64,000 bases of DNA, taken from sequence record NC_100371.1. The stretch is one strand, 5' to 3'. Positions 6,932 through 14,179 of the stretch are shown piece by piece (the first letter of the stretch is position 1; each line of letters starts with the position of its first letter). This stretch comes from a phage. The position numbers and the translations under genes were made by a program. Below the pieces are notes generated by a model that was given only the letters and a program-made list of their open reading frames with translations, was not told the origin of the DNA and searched no databases.

Positions 6932-9010
6932 TTAAAAAGGTGTTTCGTCGTCTTCAAAACCAGGAACGTGGTTAGAGGACGGATCATCATACTGAAGATC
7001 TTCCTGTGTGTCAACAGGGTTAACAGCAGGAGTTATAACCTTATCAGCCACAACCTTGCCCACAGGTGTTTCTACAACTGCATGCTCCTGATCCTCAAAC
7101 ATAGCTTGAGGTCTCCAAACAACCTCTCCACCTTCCCCGTCTGTAAACATCTGCATCTCTTTATCCCAATACCAATTGCTGGCATCGTGGAACTTGCCTG
7201 TGTGGGGATCCATAACTAGGGTGTCCGCAATACCTAAGGTTTTTGCTGGGCGGTTTTTAAGACCTACCAGCCGGACACGCCCACGGGAACGATCCACCAT
7301 CTCCTCTGCCTCTACCCCGACAACCACCCAGCTAAGTTGCTCCAATCCGGCACTACCGCGAAGGTTCTCTTTTCGTACAGGGTACCAGAAAGGTAACGGA
7401 TTTCCATCCTTATCCTTCGGAGGTACAATCTCTGTGCGCTTCAGGTGAGCAATCACCAAGATAAACACATTAAACTGCTTACAGAACGCGGCTAGTTGAG
7501 TCATAGCCATGTCAAGCTCTTTACGCTCATCCTTAACATTAAGCCCTGAAATCACCATAGACAAGTGATCCAGCACAATGTAACGGCAGTGATACAGGCA
7601 CACCATTTGTTTAAGCTTAGTGATCAGCTCATCTACAGGGATGGAGCCGAAATGCTTGAACACTTTGATTTTTCCGGCCTTGGCCCAAGATTGATGAATC
7701 TCAGCGTGCTCCTGATCGGTCAGGAACTGACTGGGGTCTTCAACAAACTCTTTAACATCAAACCCCAGCTGGTTAGCGTACAGAGAGTTGATTGCTTCCT
7801 CTGGATCCTCTTCAAGATGAATCAGGCACAGGCGATCATCCTCTTCATAATCATCAGCTTTAGGGCATGTTGGATCCATCAAGTATCTTGCAATGCAGTG
7901 TTCCAGTTTCTTGGCTACAGTTGTTTTACCACCACCAGATGGGCCTGTCAGCATCATCAAGGTGCCTTTGTGGAGCCCTTTCAGCATCTTCTGCAATTTA
8001 GGGAACTCCGCACTGATATCTACGCCATTGGAAGTCTTCTTACGAAGAGATTCAATGGAGAAGTCTTCTAAATCAGATACAGCATCAGGCACATATTTGA
8101 CTGGGTGACGGAACATGTTGACAATATCTTCCAGCTTTTTAGCCTTCAGCATGTCACGGATATCTTTTACACCATCAGGGTCGTTTACCTCGCCAGGATA
8201 TTCCACGTGGTAAACGTTGTCAGCCATCAAAAATGCTGCGATATTATGTGTAGCTTCAACACCTTTGATAACGTGTTTTTGCTTCTCTACCTCGTTAGCT
8301 GCATCGTTGTCCATTGCAAGGACTACTGTTCCGTAGCTACGGATAAATTTCTCATTGTTCGCAAAAGTGTCTACGGCGTTTGCACACCCGCAGTTAATTC
8401 CGACAAAAGGCAGGCATGGTTTTCCTGCCAGATCACCGCCGTTGATAACTGCATCAATCCCATCCTGGACTTCTTTAGCCCACTGCTTCACCTTCGCTGG
8501 GGCTTTAGCATTGGTGAGAATTCCTTTTACTTGTACCTGATATGCAGCCTGCCACGCTGCAATAACATCTCCTTCCCCCTCACAAACGTTAATCTGCTTG
8601 CGGTTGTTGGAGGATGCACACAGCTTTTGACCAAACATCTGGGAGTTGGCCTTTACTATGCCGACAACCGAGAAATGGCCCCTTTGCTCTTTAGGGATTG
8701 TCCAGTCCCGCTTTTTAAAGCCGGATAGATTACCGTAGCGGTCATAGTACGGGAAGTAGGTGGCAGTAACAGTTACACCATCCTCTTGGGATAGGGATGA
8801 TCGTACACCAAAATATTGTGCAGCCATCAGTCCAATATTTTGTTGTGGAACAGGGACAATTTTAGTGTTTTCTAAAACAGTCTCCACAGTTTCAACTTCT
8901 TTTTCATCACGATAGTCTCGTTTCACACTTCCCCCACTTTTATACTTAGTTGCTTTCGGGTTTGGCTCACCGAAACGGTTGTATGCAGATGCCATGAATT
9001 TACTGCCCAT
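6932..9010 (-). CDS. bifunctional DNA primase (TOPRIM) / replicative helicase, T7 gp4-like organisation
   Basis: 692 aa. TOPRIM signatures (VCEGEGD ... LAMDNDAANE) in N-terminal half; Walker A MLTGPSGGGKTT plus DnaB/gp4-like helicase region in C-terminal half. AAGGAGA RBS 7 nt upstream of ATG 9010. Confidence 0.85.
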   Translation of the reverse strand: MGSKFMASAYNRFGEPNPKATKYKSGGSVKRDYRDEKEVETVETVLENTKIVPVPQQNIGLMAAQYFGVRSSLSQEDGVTVTATYFPYYDRYGNLSGFKKRDWTIPKEQRGHFSVVGIVKANSQMFGQKLCASSNNRKQINVCEGEGDVIAAWQAAYQVQVKGILTNAKAPAKVKQWAKEVQDGIDAVINGGDLAGKPCLPFVGINCGCANAVDTFANNEKFIRSYGTVVLAMDNDAANEVEKQKHVIKGVEATHNIAAFLMADNVYHVEYPGEVNDPDGVKDIRDMLKAKKLEDIVNMFRHPVKYVPDAVSDLEDFSIESLRKKTSNGVDISAEFPKLQKMLKGLHKGTLMMLTGPSGGGKTTVAKKLEHCIARYLMDPTCPKADDYEEDDRLCLIHLEEDPEEAINSLYANQLGFDVKEFVEDPSQFLTDQEHAEIHQSWAKAGKIKVFKHFGSIPVDELITKLKQMVCLYHCRYIVLDHLSMVISGLNVKDERKELDMAMTQLAAFCKQFNVFILVIAHLKRTEIVPPKDKDGNPLPFWYPVRKENLRGSAGLEQLSWVVVGVEAEEMVDRSRGRVRLVGLKNRPAKTLGIADTLVMDPHTGKFHDASNWYWDKEMQMFTDGEGGEVVWRPQAMFEDQEHAVVETPVGKVVADKVITPAVNPVDTQEDLQYDDPSSNHVPGFEDDETPF

Positions 9011-9764
9011 TAATTCTTCTCCTTACTGCAGGCTCGTTTGCTAAGAATACAGCTCTTGCCCAGCCACGTGGTGTAAGGCTTCGAATCATCTTCGTCCTTG
9101 CGCTCTTTCCACCTAGCTTAGCGTGTTGCATGGAATAACCACTAACCACATCAACTATTTGCGGGACAGGCTTTGTGGCAGGGATTATAAATCCATTGCC
9201 TATCCAACCGCAAGTTATTTTTGGGTAGGCATCCCGTGGAGCTATAAATTCAGGAAACCAGGGGTTTACATCATCCTCCGGTAAATACCCGCCATAATCT
9301 GAAGGATGAAAACGGTAATCAGGTTTTCGCCACAGTGTTGACATAACTCCTACAGGGTTCTCTACATGCCACGGGCAATCGTAAATCTCTCCCAACTCTT
9401 CTGCAACCCGAGCATCTTTCACAGCATTAATTTGGATCAGAGGATCCTTAGCCAGCTTTTTCTTAAAGTGTGCAGCTCCGGATACTGCTAAATGCGTGCA
9501 CGGAGGGAATGCAAGAATAAAGTCTGGAGCTGGATACATGCAAAAAGTTTCTTGAGGGAACCATGGATCAATCCAATAATCCACATAGTGAATGTTAGGA
9601 TGATCTGTTATCACCTCTGCATAACTGCCGTGGTCAGCACCTTCTGCATTAAAGCACAGGCACAGGTACCCAGCTTTTGCCCAGTCAATAACTGCACCAC
9701 CCGACCCGTCAAATAGACTCCACACAACACCTTTGTGGTAGTGTTCTTTGTAGATAAATTTCAA
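9000..9764 (-). CDS. putative DNA (cytosine-5)-methyltransferase-like protein
   Basis: Motif I-like VWSLFDGSGG, motif IV-like AFPPCTHLAVSG, motif VI-like HVENPVG in canonical C5-MTase order. ORF-track start (GTG 9794) lies inside a hairpin; TTG at 9764 with GGAGA RBS is preferred. Short for a C5-MTase (~255 aa). Confidence 0.5.
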   Translation of the reverse strand: MKFIYKEHYHKGVVWSLFDGSGGAVIDWAKAGYLCLCFNAEGADHGSYAEVITDHPNIHYVDYWIDPWFPQETFCMYPAPDFILAFPPCTHLAVSGAAHFKKKLAKDPLIQINAVKDARVAEELGEIYDCPWHVENPVGVMSTLWRKPDYRFHPSDYGGYLPEDDVNPWFPEFIAPRDAYPKITCGWIGNGFIIPATKPVPQIVDVVSGYSMQHAKLGGKSARTKMIRSLTPRGWARAVFLANEPAVRRRINGQ

Positions 9765-9815
9765 TTTGCTGTCTCCTAATGCAAAAAGCCCCACCCTTTC
9801 GGGCAGGGCCTAGTG

Positions 9816-10298
9816 TTAAACCCGGATACCTATTGTATACTCGGTGGATACCAATGTCAAATCTAAATTTAAAATTTCTTGCATCTCATAGTATGCGTCT
9901 AGGGTGAGATACATTTCACCATCCTTTTCTACATACTTGTCAAGGTGTTTGAGGCATTTTGGATAGCTATCAAGGGCAGCCTTTAGGCACTCAAACTCCG
10001 TGCTGTTGATGAATCCTTCCATCTTGGCTACCCGTTCCGGAGTAACGATAGCACTGTAGTGAGATTTAGCTTCCTGAATGCAATGGGTCCAAGCATCAAC
10101 TTTCTCTTCGAAAAGTCCGAAGAACTTCTTCTTGGTGAGCTTCAGATTCTTTAAGTGCTTAAGAACTCGGTTGCCGATTACAGACACATCACGAAACTTA
10201 AGGATCACTTTGTCAATATCCTCGCGGCCTATTTTCACAAAGCAGGCCTCACACATTTCAGGAGAGGCATAGCCTACTTTCCACATAAAATCTGACAT
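9816..10298 (-). CDS. hypothetical protein (160 aa)
   Basis: Co-oriented ORF; no recognisable motif. Confidence 0.45.
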   Translation of the reverse strand: MSDFMWKVGYASPEMCEACFVKIGREDIDKVILKFRDVSVIGNRVLKHLKNLKLTKKKFFGLFEEKVDAWTHCIQEAKSHYSAIVTPERVAKMEGFINSTEFECLKAALDSYPKCLKHLDKYVEKDGEMYLTLDAYYEMQEILNLDLTLVSTEYTIGIRV

Positions 10299-10310
10299 AA
10301 CACTCTCTCC

Positions 10311-10706
10311 TTATTCCTGAAAAGCAACAATATCATATGCACTTGCAGATGATCCTGGTGAAGAGTGACTCCAGTCTAGGTCATCAGAGTAGTCAGCATA
10401 CTGTGCACCGCTACGTAGTTTGTATTTTACCCACTTACCTGGTGCAGGGTTCTCACCACCTTCCCATGCTTCCCAGCCTTCTGGCAGGCCATCTTGAGAG
10501 TAGTAGTCCACCTCACTAATAATCTTAGGGTTTGGCACCAAGATTCCGGCTGGTTCTTCCTTCTTAGCAAGTGTCCACACAATGTATGTGTCTGAACAGG
10601 AGCATGTCAGTAAAGTATACCCACTGTTCAGAACTTCTGAAAGCTCTTTTTCAGCATCTTCTAATTTGGTTAGGTGGTATTGGATAATCTTCACATCTGT
10701 AATCAT
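10311..10706 (-). CDS. hypothetical protein (131 aa)
   Basis: Co-oriented ORF; 1-nt overlap with the upstream gene. Confidence 0.45.
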   Translation of the reverse strand: MITDVKIIQYHLTKLEDAEKELSEVLNSGYTLLTCSCSDTYIVWTLAKKEEPAGILVPNPKIISEVDYYSQDGLPEGWEAWEGGENPAPGKWVKYKLRSGAQYADYSDDLDWSHSSPGSSASAYDIVAFQE

Positions 10707-11008
10707 TAGAAGCCTCCCACTTCTTCAGCAAATGCTGCCGCTGTCGTCGCTGCATCCAGATAGGACTCTAGTTCACGTGCTGCACGTTTGTAAATCGAGT
10801 GGCGCAGATCGTTTGGTAACTGGTGAAAATCCACCTCTTCTCCGTTGTGGTAAACATGCACATCAGTAATCTGTCTAAATCCATAATAATCAACATCAGA
10901 ATCACGGCACTCCGGATCTGGCAACTGGACAACTGCCTGAGCTTCTACAGTGAGCATATCGTCAAGTTCGAAATCGATTTCAAAAGTGTATGGTTTATAA
11001 CGCTTCAT
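10706..11008 (-). CDS. hypothetical protein (100 aa)
   Basis: Co-oriented ORF. Confidence 0.45.
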   Translation of the reverse strand: MKRYKPYTFEIDFELDDMLTVEAQAVVQLPDPECRDSDVDYYGFRQITDVHVYHNGEEVDFHQLPNDLRHSIYKRAARELESYLDAATTAAAFAEEVGGF

Positions 11009-11067
11009 CGTTTGGTGTTCTCCTTATCTTGTGTGAAGAGTAGACCTACCCTTCGATATTTTAAATA

Positions 11068-12411
11068 TTACTCTAAATCTTCTTCTGAGTCAAGCTTATC
11101 TTTCATAACTAAGTTCGGGGCAAGTTTGTAATAGCGAAAGCCCCCGCCACCTTGCCAGTTTACAGATTTAGAAATACCACTTTGATCTTCGCCATCGATC
11201 ACTTTTTGCAAGCGCGGGATGATATGGGTATGACAATGATCACCTAACTCGACAGAGATCCAACGTCTTTTCATCTTGTGAGCTACAGCAGCAGTAGTTC
11301 CTGAACCGCCGAATGAATCCAAGACTAAATCTCCTTCTCGCGTACACATTTCGAAAATTCGCTTCAAAAGCGCTTCGGGCTTTTTTCCATTTTTGAAACT
11401 AACGCCGCCTTCATTTGCTATTCCATTCCAACTAATGTCGGTCCAAACATCAGTTATTAGTTCAGCAGGCTGCATCTCACCGTCAATTTCCAAAAGCCTA
11501 TTGGAATAAAAGACCATTTGCCTACCATTTGCGATATAAAAGCCTTCGACATCCTCATTTGGATGTACATAAACCTTATCCCTATCTTTCTTTGACTTCT
11601 CGATAGTTTCTTTTCTCTTTATTTTGGCACCACCACCAATTGCAACGGATTGAAATACACGTTCTGCATTATCAATTGCAAATTGTGCTAATTCATCATC
11701 AAATGTATCAGGAAGTTTTTTCTTGGCTTCTTTTGCATCCTTATATCCATTGGCCTTTGCAAACGCATCGGCAATACCGCACCACGTCCAACTTTTATAA
11801 TGGTCATCTGGGTTTAATAGATATTTGTTATATCCCGTATCATACTCTTTAGGTATATAGATTTTGTTAAGTGGTTTCTTGGTACGATCTTTTGCATATA
11901 CAAGCAAAAAGTTTGCTGTGGAGAAAACTGTAGTTCCTGTTGCCTTAAAGCCTGAAGGGCAATTTGTAGTCATCGATATGGTATTTAACTGATTTGCACG
12001 ACCAAAAATCTCGTCCATCAAGACTTTTAAATAAGCCATTTCGCAGTCATCTAAGTGAACGAATATCACTCCATCATCGCTTAGCAGATTACGAATTATT
12101 TCTAATCTGTCCCGCATTAAGCCCAGCCAAAGGGAGTGCTCCAGGCTATCATCGTAGTGCTCAAAATCCCTTCCGGTATTGAATGGCGGGTCTATGTAAA
12201 CACACTTCACTTTGCCTGCATACTCTTGCTCTAGTGCCTTCAATGCCAGTAAGTTATCTCCAAAAATCAGTTTATTATCAAAAATATCGTTTTCGGTCAC
12301 CTTTTTACTGGCGTGATAAGACTTGCTCGAATCTTCTAACAAAATGTGAGGCTCTAGCTTTTTGCGCTCGTTCTTACCTATCCAGGTAAGTTCTAATTTG
12401 GTTTTACTCAT
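11068..12411 (-). CDS. DNA methyltransferase, beta-class N6-adenine/N4-cytosine (N6_N4_Mtase-like)
   Basis: 447 aa. Catalytic motif IV VYIDPPFNTG precedes SAM-binding motif I DSFGGSGTTAAVA (circular permutation typical of beta-class amino-MTases). AAGGAGAG RBS upstream. Confidence 0.85.
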   Translation of the reverse strand: MSKTKLELTWIGKNERKKLEPHILLEDSSKSYHASKKVTENDIFDNKLIFGDNLLALKALEQEYAGKVKCVYIDPPFNTGRDFEHYDDSLEHSLWLGLMRDRLEIIRNLLSDDGVIFVHLDDCEMAYLKVLMDEIFGRANQLNTISMTTNCPSGFKATGTTVFSTANFLLVYAKDRTKKPLNKIYIPKEYDTGYNKYLLNPDDHYKSWTWCGIADAFAKANGYKDAKEAKKKLPDTFDDELAQFAIDNAERVFQSVAIGGGAKIKRKETIEKSKKDRDKVYVHPNEDVEGFYIANGRQMVFYSNRLLEIDGEMQPAELITDVWTDISWNGIANEGGVSFKNGKKPEALLKRIFEMCTREGDLVLDSFGGSGTTAAVAHKMKRRWISVELGDHCHTHIIPRLQKVIDGEDQSGISKSVNWQGGGGFRYYKLAPNLVMKDKLDSEEDLE

Positions 12412-12437
12412 CGTTTGGTGCTCTCCTTAGTTTTTGT

Positions 12438-12455
12438 GGGGAGGAGTGCCTCCCC
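12438..12455. other. perfect 7-bp intergenic stem-loop upstream of the methyltransferase RBS
   Basis: GGGGAGG-AGTG-CCTCCCC; on the minus-strand transcript it is followed by A-rich sequence and the RBS, so not a canonical terminator in that direction. Confidence 0.4.
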
Positions 12456-12472
12456 TTTATACTCACATCTTA

Positions 12473-12814
12473 CTACTCAAGGTCTTCAGAGTCAAGCTCA
12501 AAAAGAATCAAACTGTGCATGCCTGCAGAGAGATCAACACACCCTGCAACAATAAGGGTTTGATAGTAAGGTTCAGCACCCTCAATATCTTCGTTAAAAT
12601 CCACAACAAGGTAGTCACCTTTGTTAAAGGTGTATTTGTCCGATGTAAACGCAAAACCTGCCCAGTCCCCTACTGCAGGATCTTTATCAGTCACCTTTGT
12701 TAGCAGTAGATCTTTTTCACGAGATCTTTTAGTAAAATCGTGAATCACAACATCCTTCTCTTCAGGAGTCGGATTGCCACACACGTAGTTAACGATATTT
12801 CTCCACAAACTCAT
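12473..12814 (-). CDS. hypothetical protein (113 aa)
   Basis: Co-oriented ORF; ATGA overlap with the upstream gene. Confidence 0.45.
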   Translation of the reverse strand: MSLWRNIVNYVCGNPTPEEKDVVIHDFTKRSREKDLLLTKVTDKDPAVGDWAGFAFTSDKYTFNKGDYLVVDFNEDIEGAEPYYQTLIVAGCVDLSAGMHSLILFELDSEDLE

Positions 12815-13458
12815 ACGTCCCCCTTTTCTGCTCTAGTTTCAAAATCTTTCCTGACTTTCTCGTCTAAACCAGGGAAAGTTGTATTATAAAACTCTACGAC
12901 TCTCGGGTCAACAATAATATCCACCTCTCTTAATGGACGCAACAAGTTTATTCCTTGTATCGTCTTAACCCGACTCAAGGCAACATACGTCATTCCGGGA
13001 GAGAAAGCTCCGTTCTTTCCGAGGTCTAGGTTGTAACAATCTAACGTAAGTCCTTGACTTTTATGCGATGTTACTGCGTACCCAGATTTCAAAGGAAGTT
13101 GCTCATAAGACCCGATCACAACCCTCTCTATGAACTTCTCCATCTTCCTTTCGGCAATATTGTACCTCTGGGAAGGTTTGTACTCGTTATTCTCCCACAA
13201 TCTCGGCTCAATTTCAACCTGTGTCCCGTCTTCCAGCTCAACCACCACAGACTTGGTCTTGAATTTTACCACTGTGGCTCGTGTCCCGTTGACATAGTAC
13301 GGAACTTTGTGTGTCGGGTCAACATCGTTTGAGGTTATCATAACCTTCATCCCTATCTTCAGCCTCATTTCCTGCTCCACAGGTAGTGTGGAAGGGAACT
13401 TACCTTTCATTTTACCAATGTAGGTCTTCTCTGGGGCCTTGATGGCATCATAGAAACG
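12811..13458 (-). pseudogene. Pif1/RecD/Dda-like SF1B helicase, C-terminal part (frame-shifted relative to the N-terminal part)
   Basis: Contains helicase motifs V/VI (VTSHKSQGLTLD, TYVALSRVKT). This frame is open upstream to 13458 and overlaps the end of the N-terminal ORF in a different frame. Confidence 0.7.
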
Positions 13459-14179
13459 TCATCACCTCCTCTGCTTGCTTATTGGTGGCACAGATGGTCA
13501 AGGCATCTGTTGGGACACCACCATGATAGCAACGAGTGTTAAGCTCTGCTACAACCTCTTTTATGCGACGACCTTCACGAACACAGTTCAACATTGTGGC
13601 GAAGCGAACAGATTCCTGACGGAACTGGTCTACTAATGCTATGTTGTGAAGATTAAGATCCTCCCAAGATTCTGTATAGCAACACAGATCTGTGTGGTAG
13701 AAGTTGAAGTAGGCTTCTTTCTCCATAGAAGAGACAACTGGAGGTGCTTGGTAGAAATCTCCAAACAATAACACCTGAATGCCTCCGAAAGGTTTGTCAT
13801 TTTTCCGAAGAAAGCGGAGTTTTCTATCCATCTCTATGAACTTGTCAGCACGGATCATAGAGATTTCATCGATAATCAGGATGGTAAATGCCTTGCTTTT
13901 CAGAGGCTTTGCTGTTTTTGCCCTTATTGCTGTCCAGTCTGACTCCATGCTCACACCTGCGGCAAGATCGAAAGTTCGGTGCGCTGTTGCTCCATTAACG
14001 TTTAAAGCGGCTACCCCTGTCGGGGCAACCGTTATGCAAGAGTCTCCATACATGGACTGGATCATGTTGATAAGATATGTCTTCCCGGTTCCACCAGGTC
14101 CACTTACGAAGACATTCTCACCGCTCATGATTGCAACAAGGGCAGCATCTGTGCCTACATCGTACTGCCCTTTTTCCAT
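13448..14179 (-). pseudogene. Pif1/RecD/Dda-like SF1B helicase, N-terminal part
   Basis: Walker A GPGGTGKT, motif II LIIDEISM, motif III LLFGDFYQAPPV; ends ...ATNKQAEEVMTFL and continues in another frame as the C-terminal part. Confidence 0.7.

Follow-up and report, generated by a model that had tools for sequence, protein, structure and literature searches.

Two DNA methyltransferase genes with no nuclease partner among the replication genes of an rV5-like Escherichia coli phage, one of them probably captured and trimmed from a host type III restriction-modification system

The 64,000-nucleotide (nt) stretch of phage DNA NC_100371.1, called "the window" at its full length below, encodes in the region between positions 8800 and 12600 two predicted DNA methyltransferases of different classes, here named gene A and gene B. 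In GenBank this region is 93–98% identical to 117 phage records, 85 of which span at least 80% of it; nearly all of them are Escherichia phages of the genus Vequintavirus (rV5, FV3, S127 BCL3, NHEP1, Murica, and others), and the window can be assigned to this genus as an rV5-like, virulent E. coli myophage. Every gene of the region lies on the minus strand, and the gene order is that of rV5 open reading frames (ORFs) 230–238, namely a primase/helicase gene, ORF231 (gene A), three small ORFs, ORF235 (gene B), ORF236, a helicase gene, and rIIB. An initial annotation of this DNA had reported two methyltransferase genes here (9000..9764 and 11068..12411), about 1.3 kb apart in the early operon; both are present on the minus strand, and the gap between them is 1,304 bp. 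Their position in the replication gene block suggests that the two may belong to an early operon; in rV5 this block, which has sigma-70-type promoters, is placed in transcription unit 10-1-238-164 (PMC3606486). The features of gene B are as follows (aa, amino acids; SAM, S-adenosylmethionine; Mod, the modification subunit of a type III system):

11068..12411, minus strand: gene B (447 aa; rV5 ORF235), a putative beta-class N6-adenine DNA methyltransferase resembling type III Mods, an orphan and lacking the C-terminal domain
12181..12192, minus strand: DPPF, catalytic motif IV of gene B (aa 74–77)
11299..11313, minus strand: FGGSG, SAM-binding motif I of gene B (aa 367–371), downstream of motif IV
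11082..12424, minus strand: block common to gene B and an E. coli mod gene (94.3% nucleotide identity over 1,344 bp by blastn, against positions 7987..9330 of E. coli contig L005)
11071..11082, minus strand: final four codons of gene B, with no relation to the E. coli mod sequence; the truncation point, in the linker between the methyltransferase and C-terminal domains

The gene B protein matches Pfam family PF01555 (N6_N4_Mtase) at 147.8 bits, against a cut-off of 26.7, and the PADLOC type III methyltransferase profile MTase_III (PDLC03636) with an E-value of 2.8e-205 (681 bits, profile positions 2–445 of 575). Its nearest relatives of solved structure are type III Mods, those of Helicobacter pylori (6k0w, 1e-28), EcoP15I (4zcf, 1e-23), and Mbo45V. 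Motif IV precedes motif I in the polypeptide, as expected of the beta class to which the initial annotation had assigned it, and the aspartate in motif IV is typical of adenine-N6 enzymes. The predicted product is a type III Mod-type N6-adenine methyltransferase.

The closest database match of gene B is a 567-aa E. coli Mod (P0391), to which it is 95% identical over 99% of the phage protein. The shared block begins 13 nt upstream of the gene B ATG and ends at codon 443 of the 567 in P0391, and the codon differences between the two genes comprise 47 synonymous and 22 nonsynonymous changes, which argues for purifying selection. Just two substitutions fall in aa 201–400, a segment that includes motif I and the greater part of the recognition region. 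In three E. coli contigs the P0391 gene lies directly upstream of a gene for a 912-aa protein with ResIII and Helicase_C domains (Res), and the island that holds this pair also has AlpA, SNF2, Abi_2, and AIPR genes; P0391 and the 912-aa Res together make up a complete type III restriction-modification (RM) system in a defense island. The system is present in 29 of 5,426 complete E. coli genomes (∼0.5%), is chromosomal in every case, and occurs in strains that include cattle, chicken, and human isolates (APEC E16002, LS45, and 2014C-3011 are examples of carriers); in 24 of the 29 the mod gene is ∼94.5% identical to gene B across the whole length of gene B.

One of these loci, positions 1..13600 of contig L005 (E. 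coli assembly GCA_026236215.1), has the mod-res pair together with AlpA, a 964-aa SNF2/ResIII helicase, Abi_2, and AIPR genes, followed by IS66 genes. It looks like a mobile defense island.

Full-length bacterial homologs of gene B occur in many phyla; they are 560–600 aa long, have the C-terminal domain, and share 59–77% identity with gene B. When P0391 is compared with other bacterial Mods, its C-terminal domain is seen to diverge in step with its first 443 residues. This parallel divergence and the spread of full-length homologs across phyla favor transfer from bacterium to phage, so P0391 looks like an ordinary bacterial Mod and phage gene B like a derived form.

What gene B lacks is the ∼120-aa C-terminal domain of a P0391-type Mod, and no remnant of that domain is present anywhere in the window. 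The Mod of EcoP15I has four domains (N-terminal, methyltransferase core, recognition, and C-terminal); it dimerizes through the N-terminal and methyltransferase domains, the resulting Mod2 acts as a methyltransferase on its own, and extensive contacts with Res are made by the C-terminal domain of a single protomer (ModA) (PMC4490356). The end of gene B aligns to approximately residue 525 of EcoP15I Mod, past the core, whose last residue is 516, and short of the C-terminal domain, which starts at 539, so gene B should keep all that is needed to methylate and has lost the part that recruits the nuclease. The rV5 homolog, ORF235, is cut at the same place and has a different tail, in which ∼18 further nt of the E. 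coli ORF are kept out of frame; this argues for one ancestral capture.

A Res partner is likewise missing from the phage. The initial annotation had seen no cognate endonuclease, and in agreement with this neither the three ORFs between the two genes nor the one upstream of gene B has a nuclease match in Pfam, PHROGs, or PADLOC. The ORFs neighboring gene B have no ResIII match, the nearby helicase is a Pif1/Dda-type SF1 enzyme, and a tblastn search of the window with the E. coli Res gave nothing significant (best E-value 0.29). These results support the view that both methyltransferase genes are orphans with no nuclease partner. The intervening ORFs are the following:

9816..11008, minus strand: three small ORFs between gene A and gene B (160, 131, and 100 aa; rV5 ORFs 232–234); not nucleases by any profile, and none of them the missing Mod C-terminal domain

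The 100-aa ORF directly downstream of gene B (10706..11008) was considered as a candidate for that domain on account of a weak match to a methyltransferase PHROG, and was rejected with a BLASTP E-value of 13. A length of ∼440 aa was also considered as a uniform signature of phage Mods and discarded, as one such protein (P0395, 82% identical to gene B) is in another large phage and a second (P0442, 65%) is in a degraded bacterial locus. The P0395-type Mod is 444 aa long, has no C-terminal domain, and is encoded at positions 7001..8335 of a 38.8 kb phage-like contig (L009, Logan SRR16894903) that also carries PhoH and ClpP genes, a Dam-type methyltransferase, and an NrdD gene interrupted by homing endonucleases; trimmed Mods are thus not confined to Vequintavirus.

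A 20-nt leader, AAGGAGA[G/A]CACCAAACGATG, stands on the minus strand both at the start of gene B (12409..12428) and at the start of the next gene (11006..11025), where no chance matches are expected (0). The leader of the E. coli mod gene is related to it, and rV5 does not have the second copy. The two copies flank the captured gene B like the ends of a cassette.

The other methyltransferase gene, gene A, has the following features:

9000..9764, minus strand: gene A, short C5-cytosine-methyltransferase-like protein (254 aa, 765-nt coding sequence; rV5 ORF231; phrog_757)
9696..9713, minus strand: FDGSGG, motif I of gene A (aa 18–23)
9498..9509, minus strand: FPPC, motif IV of gene A, with predicted catalytic Cys89 (aa 86–89); Cys89 is invariant in 26 of 26 close and 64 of 64 divergent relatives
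9354..9362, minus strand: ENP, motif VI of gene A, with Glu135 (aa 135–137); among 64 relatives Glu135 is present in 64, Asn136 in 61, and Pro137 in 64
9762..9777, minus strand: Shine-Dalgarno sequence AGGAGA (9777..9772), 7-nt spacer, and TTG start codon (9764..9762) of gene A
9786..9860, minus strand: strong sigma-70-like promoter (9860..9832, TTGACA-17-TACAAT, annotated as P231 in rV5) and then, still ahead of gene A, a terminator-like hairpin (9811..9786) that has a T-run

A non-ATG start had been proposed for this gene, and the TTG 7 nt past AGGAGA bears this out; the GenBank coding sequences of rV5 and S127 BCL3 comprise the same 765 nt. A longer reading from a GTG at 9794 was rejected, as that codon lies inside the terminator-like hairpin and has no ribosome-binding site. 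At its other end gene A shares 11 nt with the start of the primase/helicase gene (ATG at 9010). The hairpin lies ∼14 nt past the transcription start expected for a P231-type promoter, and the ribosome-binding site and TTG of gene A come next. This order of promoter and then terminator ahead of a gene is unusual, and the hairpin might be an attenuator or a stabilizing 5′ structure.

The motifs FDGSGG, PPC, and ENP reported in the initial annotation are all found in gene A, which matches the PHROGs family phrog_757 ("DNA methyltransferase") at 5.8e-87. Its homologs number 4,183 at 90% clustering and 1,013 representatives at 50% clustering, and almost all are 210–260 aa long, so the shortness of the protein is a family trait and not an oddity of one phage; the earlier description of it as unusually short is correct in comparison with canonical C5 methyltransferases and does not apply within its own family (members of ∼210–260 aa). 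In an alignment of 64 representatives of 33–52% identity, Cys89, Gly96, Glu135, Pro137, Pro154, Tyr180, Trp187, and Pro195 are invariant. The structure model (predicted local distance difference test score, pLDDT, 89) has only C5 methyltransferases as its top matches, which are SAM-using DNA methyltransferases with DNMT3B the best, and the predicted three-dimensional fold agrees with that of the C5-cytosine DNA methyltransferases.

Alignment of the gene A family to M.HhaI by hhalign is weak (E 0.16–0.18) and brings motifs I, IV, and VI and the DYG element into register, with Cys89 placed on HhaI Cys81 and Glu135 on the Glu of HhaI ENV. The M.HhaI query was 100% identical to database protein P0271 and matches PDB entry 10mh over residues 1–327; the HhaI-like profile is shallow, since the database search seeded with M.HhaI gave only relatives of at least 71% identity and no deepening. 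The initial annotation had made its C5 assignment depend on the catalytic cysteine of a proper alignment, and that residue is kept in every relative of both sets and aligned to its HhaI counterpart. The enzyme classes first given to the two genes, beta-class for gene B and C5-cytosine methyltransferase fold for gene A, both hold. An NCBIfam search with gene A gave no match, and queries of the PDB (whole protein, family profile, or last 44 aa) yielded either marginal matches of the N-terminal part to M.HaeIII and DNMT3B (E ∼1) or none.

Motif I, FDGSGG in gene A, is F-D-x-T/S-G in the wider family. Gene A also has a DYGG element, a conserved stretch from R177 to K182, a conserved insertion of ∼20 residues between the DYG element and the following strand, and a C-terminal RSLTPRG(F/W)A helix that resembles motif IX or X in a register that is not fixed. 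Only ∼43 residues separate the last core strand from the C-terminal helix, so the recognition region should be very small. One relative lies in the nin region of a lambdoid E. coli prophage, adjoining Dam, NinG, and RusA genes, and another lies near the primase gene of a T1-like phage; both settings are early or replication modules, and neither has a nuclease partner. The BFVD matches of gene A are phage proteins labeled as cytosine methylases, and no biochemical study of this short C5-like family was found in the literature. We infer that gene A is an active, minimal C5-cytosine methyltransferase of a phage-specific family.

In BFVD entry A0A6J5SE15, from an uncultured phage, a further domain with the short C5-methyltransferase fold (27% identity) is part of a 1,397-aa fusion protein that has a helicase annotation.

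Taken together, it appears somewhat probable, and this is the reading favored here, that a virulent rV5-like coliphage carries in its replication block two stand-alone DNA methyltransferases that modify the phage's own DNA, and that gene B is a captured and trimmed host Mod. Gene B would then be the Mod of an E. coli type III system with its N-terminal dimerization region, its core, and a nearly unchanged recognition region kept. As a Mod2 dimer with a specificity identical to that of its source, it would place N6-methyladenine on one strand of the host system's asymmetric site, and progeny DNA would be methylated in advance whatever the previous host, and so would be left uncut by the P0391 system or by any other of the same specificity; a protein with no Res-docking domain could not itself be recruited into the restriction complex. 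In gene A, Cys89 would be the nucleophile that attacks C6 of a flipped cytosine, with Glu135 in contact with N3/N4 and SAM as the methyl donor. The most likely role of gene B, as far as its sequence can indicate, is pre-emptive self-methylation against one host type III system, and the phage can in this way probably hide its own DNA from a P0391-type system. Of the orphan protective methylation proposed in the initial annotation, the orphan part stands for both genes; the protective part is still conjectural, and it has become specific and better supported for gene B only.

Several observations weigh against this reading. Gene A is below the curated threshold of Pfam PF00145 and does not match it, and just 5 of the 64 relatives reach E<1. 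At the motif II position (aa 37–42, 9639..9656) the residue aligned with the SAM-ribose-binding Glu40 of M.HhaI is Asn39, with Asn replacing the usual acid; it is Asn in 26 of 26 members of the enterobacterial-phage clade and Asp in 60 of 64 members of the wider family. Motifs VIII to X could not be mapped with confidence by hhalign to HhaI. E. coli K-12 MG1655, the isolation host of many of these phages, has McrBC, McrA, and Mrr, and dense 5-methylcytosine in purine-C contexts is therefore unlikely as the product of gene A. The presence of the P0391 system in only ∼0.5% of complete genomes is hard to square with the retention of gene B by apparently every Vequintavirus; a second role, or other hosts whose systems have the same specificity, may account for it. 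In the BASEL study, the Vequintavirinae were "exceptionally susceptible" to six RM systems, two each of type I, II, and III (EcoKI, EcoCFT_I, EcoRI, EcoRV, EcoP1_I, and EcoCFT_II), and seemed "to lack any effective protection" (PMC8594841). Any protection must therefore be narrow. As far as could be told, none of the six is evidently the P0391 system, and the result limits the breadth of protection and leaves the specific proposal for gene B untouched. Finally, the literature searched yielded nothing specific on a Vequintavirus methylome, on restriction digests of rV5 DNA, or on a phage-borne type III Mod.

The same sensitivity of these phages to the RM systems tested is one of the points in favor of a different view, that both methyltransferases serve transactions of the phage DNA (marking of replicated DNA, packaging, avoidance of mismatch repair, or timing of transcription) and not restriction evasion, and that the likeness of gene B to a host Mod tells only of its origin. 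Both genes do lie in the replication block, the end of gene A runs 11 nt into the primase/helicase gene and across its start codon, and elsewhere gene A relatives adjoin phage genes for replication and recombination. A 2025 EcoSal Plus review of restriction-modification (PMC12707154) points out that control of the viral cycle may be the task of many orphan methyltransferases of phages, with P1 Dam acting at pac sites as an example. However, no regulatory target is known here, and a recognition region nearly identical to that of a functioning host RM system, with precise loss of the Res-binding domain, fits mimicry and would be needless for housekeeping; a role of this kind is a possibility to be kept in mind, but an unlikely one.

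Self-protection might also be accompanied by interference. The dimerization surfaces of gene B are kept and its Res-docking domain is lost, so mixed dimers with the 95%-identical host Mod might form during infection, and gene B would then be a dominant-negative inhibitor of the type III restriction complex; separately, the short C5-like family might be a low-specificity or non-methyl modifier of cytosine. This reading seems distinctly improbable.

Another view of gene A is that it is not a DNA 5-methylcytosine methyltransferase at all, and that it performs some other transfer (of a carboxymethyl group from carboxy-S-adenosylmethionine, Cx-SAM, as does CmoX), methylates tRNA like Dnmt2, or binds with no catalysis. 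The lack of any PF00145 or NCBIfam match would fit this, as would R233, present in 46 of the 64 relatives at or beside the start of the last helix, where in CmoX an Arg replaces the Asn of motif X and binds the carboxyl group. But the register of R233 relative to HhaI Asn304 is not fixed by the alignment, and the DNMT3 enzymes also have an Arg in motif X and use SAM. CmoX, a phage DNA cytosine C5-carboxymethyltransferase (PDB 8yf3), is recognized by the signature SPPC, by an Arg at the motif X Asn position, and by nearby CmoA or ligase genes (PMC12783734). E. coli itself makes Cx-SAM via CmoA (PMC12783734), but gene A has FPPC in place of SPPC, with Phe86 in 58 of the 64 relatives, and no CmoA, CmoY, or ligase gene lies near it; neither are CmoA or ligase genes found in the two other contexts examined. 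Its top structural matches, moreover, are SAM-using DNA methyltransferases, and a different reaction is very doubtful.

It is equally hard to credit that gene B is an inactive, decaying host fragment, or that transfer ran in reverse and the E. coli RM system took the 5′ part of its mod gene from a phage: gene B is truncated in comparison with every full-length bacterial homolog, its 3′ junction differs between the rV5 lineage and that of the window, and the repeat of the 20-nt translation leader at the next phage gene indicates local rearrangement, but the region is present in 117 phage records with frames intact where examined (the window, rV5, S127 BCL3, and several annotated relatives), none of the catalytic motifs has been lost, synonymous changes outnumber nonsynonymous ones (47 to 22), and the cut coincides exactly with a domain boundary, the remainder corresponding to the Mod2 methyltransferase that is self-sufficient in EcoP15I, while full-length homologs across phyla and the parallel divergence of the P0391 C-terminal domain and N-terminal 443 aa speak against the reverse direction.

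Captured host methyltransferase genes are not new in phages, and have been called "Trojan Horse" acquisitions; precedents are lactococcal phage phi50, in which a portion of the LlaI methylase gene was acquired from pTR2030, and Bacillus phages with their multispecific C5 methyltransferases. Gene B resembles the reviewed cases (PMC12707154) in being a near-identical phage gene carried with no nuclease, and differs from them in that its donor is a type III system, in that the nuclease-binding domain is lost, and in that protection here is a proposed role. Compared with type III Mods themselves (EcoP15I, EcoP1I, H. pylori M.HpyAXVII, and the nearest, P0391), it has the same order of motifs and the same N-terminal, methyltransferase, and recognition layout, and is 95% identical to P0391 over 443 aa, but it lacks both the C-terminal Res-docking domain and an accompanying res gene, and its carrier is a virulent phage. 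For the related Pectobacterium phage CB7 (Certrevirus, Vequintavirinae), an N6-adenine methylase and a cytosine methylase have been reported, the same two-methyltransferase arrangement; its adenine enzyme is described as Dam-like, on the evidence of ClaI digestion, and not as a type III Mod like gene B (PMC7344957). Gene A has the fold of the canonical C5 methyltransferases (M.HhaI, M.HaeIII, and Dcm) and of DNMT3A/3B, with motifs I, IV, and VI in the same order and with their catalytic Cys and Glu residues. With DNMT3B, its best structural match, it also has in common a very small recognition region. It differs from the canonical enzymes in its length (254 aa versus ∼330 aa for M.HhaI), in its insertion of ∼20 residues, and in the Asn that replaces the acid of motif II.

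The annotation of these genes as methyltransferases is itself already known, and relatives are labeled "DNA cytosine methyltransferase", "adenine methyltransferase", or [quoted passage not shown]. In the light of the literature searched, what appears to be new for gene B is the specific host type III system as its near-identical source and the exact loss of the Res-docking domain; for gene A, it is the membership in a very large, uncharacterized family with a minimal recognition region that curated profile libraries have missed. Orphan methyltransferases are common in phages and the host defense that each one answers is rarely known, and the gene B sequence points to a specific partner. If the proposal is correct, it is an example of how a subunit of a multisubunit restriction enzyme can be trimmed into an anti-restriction tool, and rV5-like phages, which are candidates for phage therapy and for biocontrol of O157 and avian pathogenic E. 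coli, would be immune to the P0391 system. If the target of gene A were defined, a gap in the annotation of T1-like, lambdoid, and rV5-like phages would be closed.

Two minor points concern the surrounding sequence and its database relatives. The Pif1/Dda-type helicase gene (12811..14179, minus strand) has a 2-bp deletion near 13461 that divides it into two ORFs (13448..14179 and 12811..13410), and in rV5 (ORF237) and S127 BCL3 the same helicase is one 1,371-nt coding sequence; either genuine loss of the gene or an error in the sequencing could explain the split. Sixteen records named "Campylobacter phage" (for example, MG065659.1; host Campylobacter jejuni; one of them 75.6 kb long) are ∼93% identical to the region from 8800 to 12600, and these are probably mislabeled or derived from contaminated preparations.

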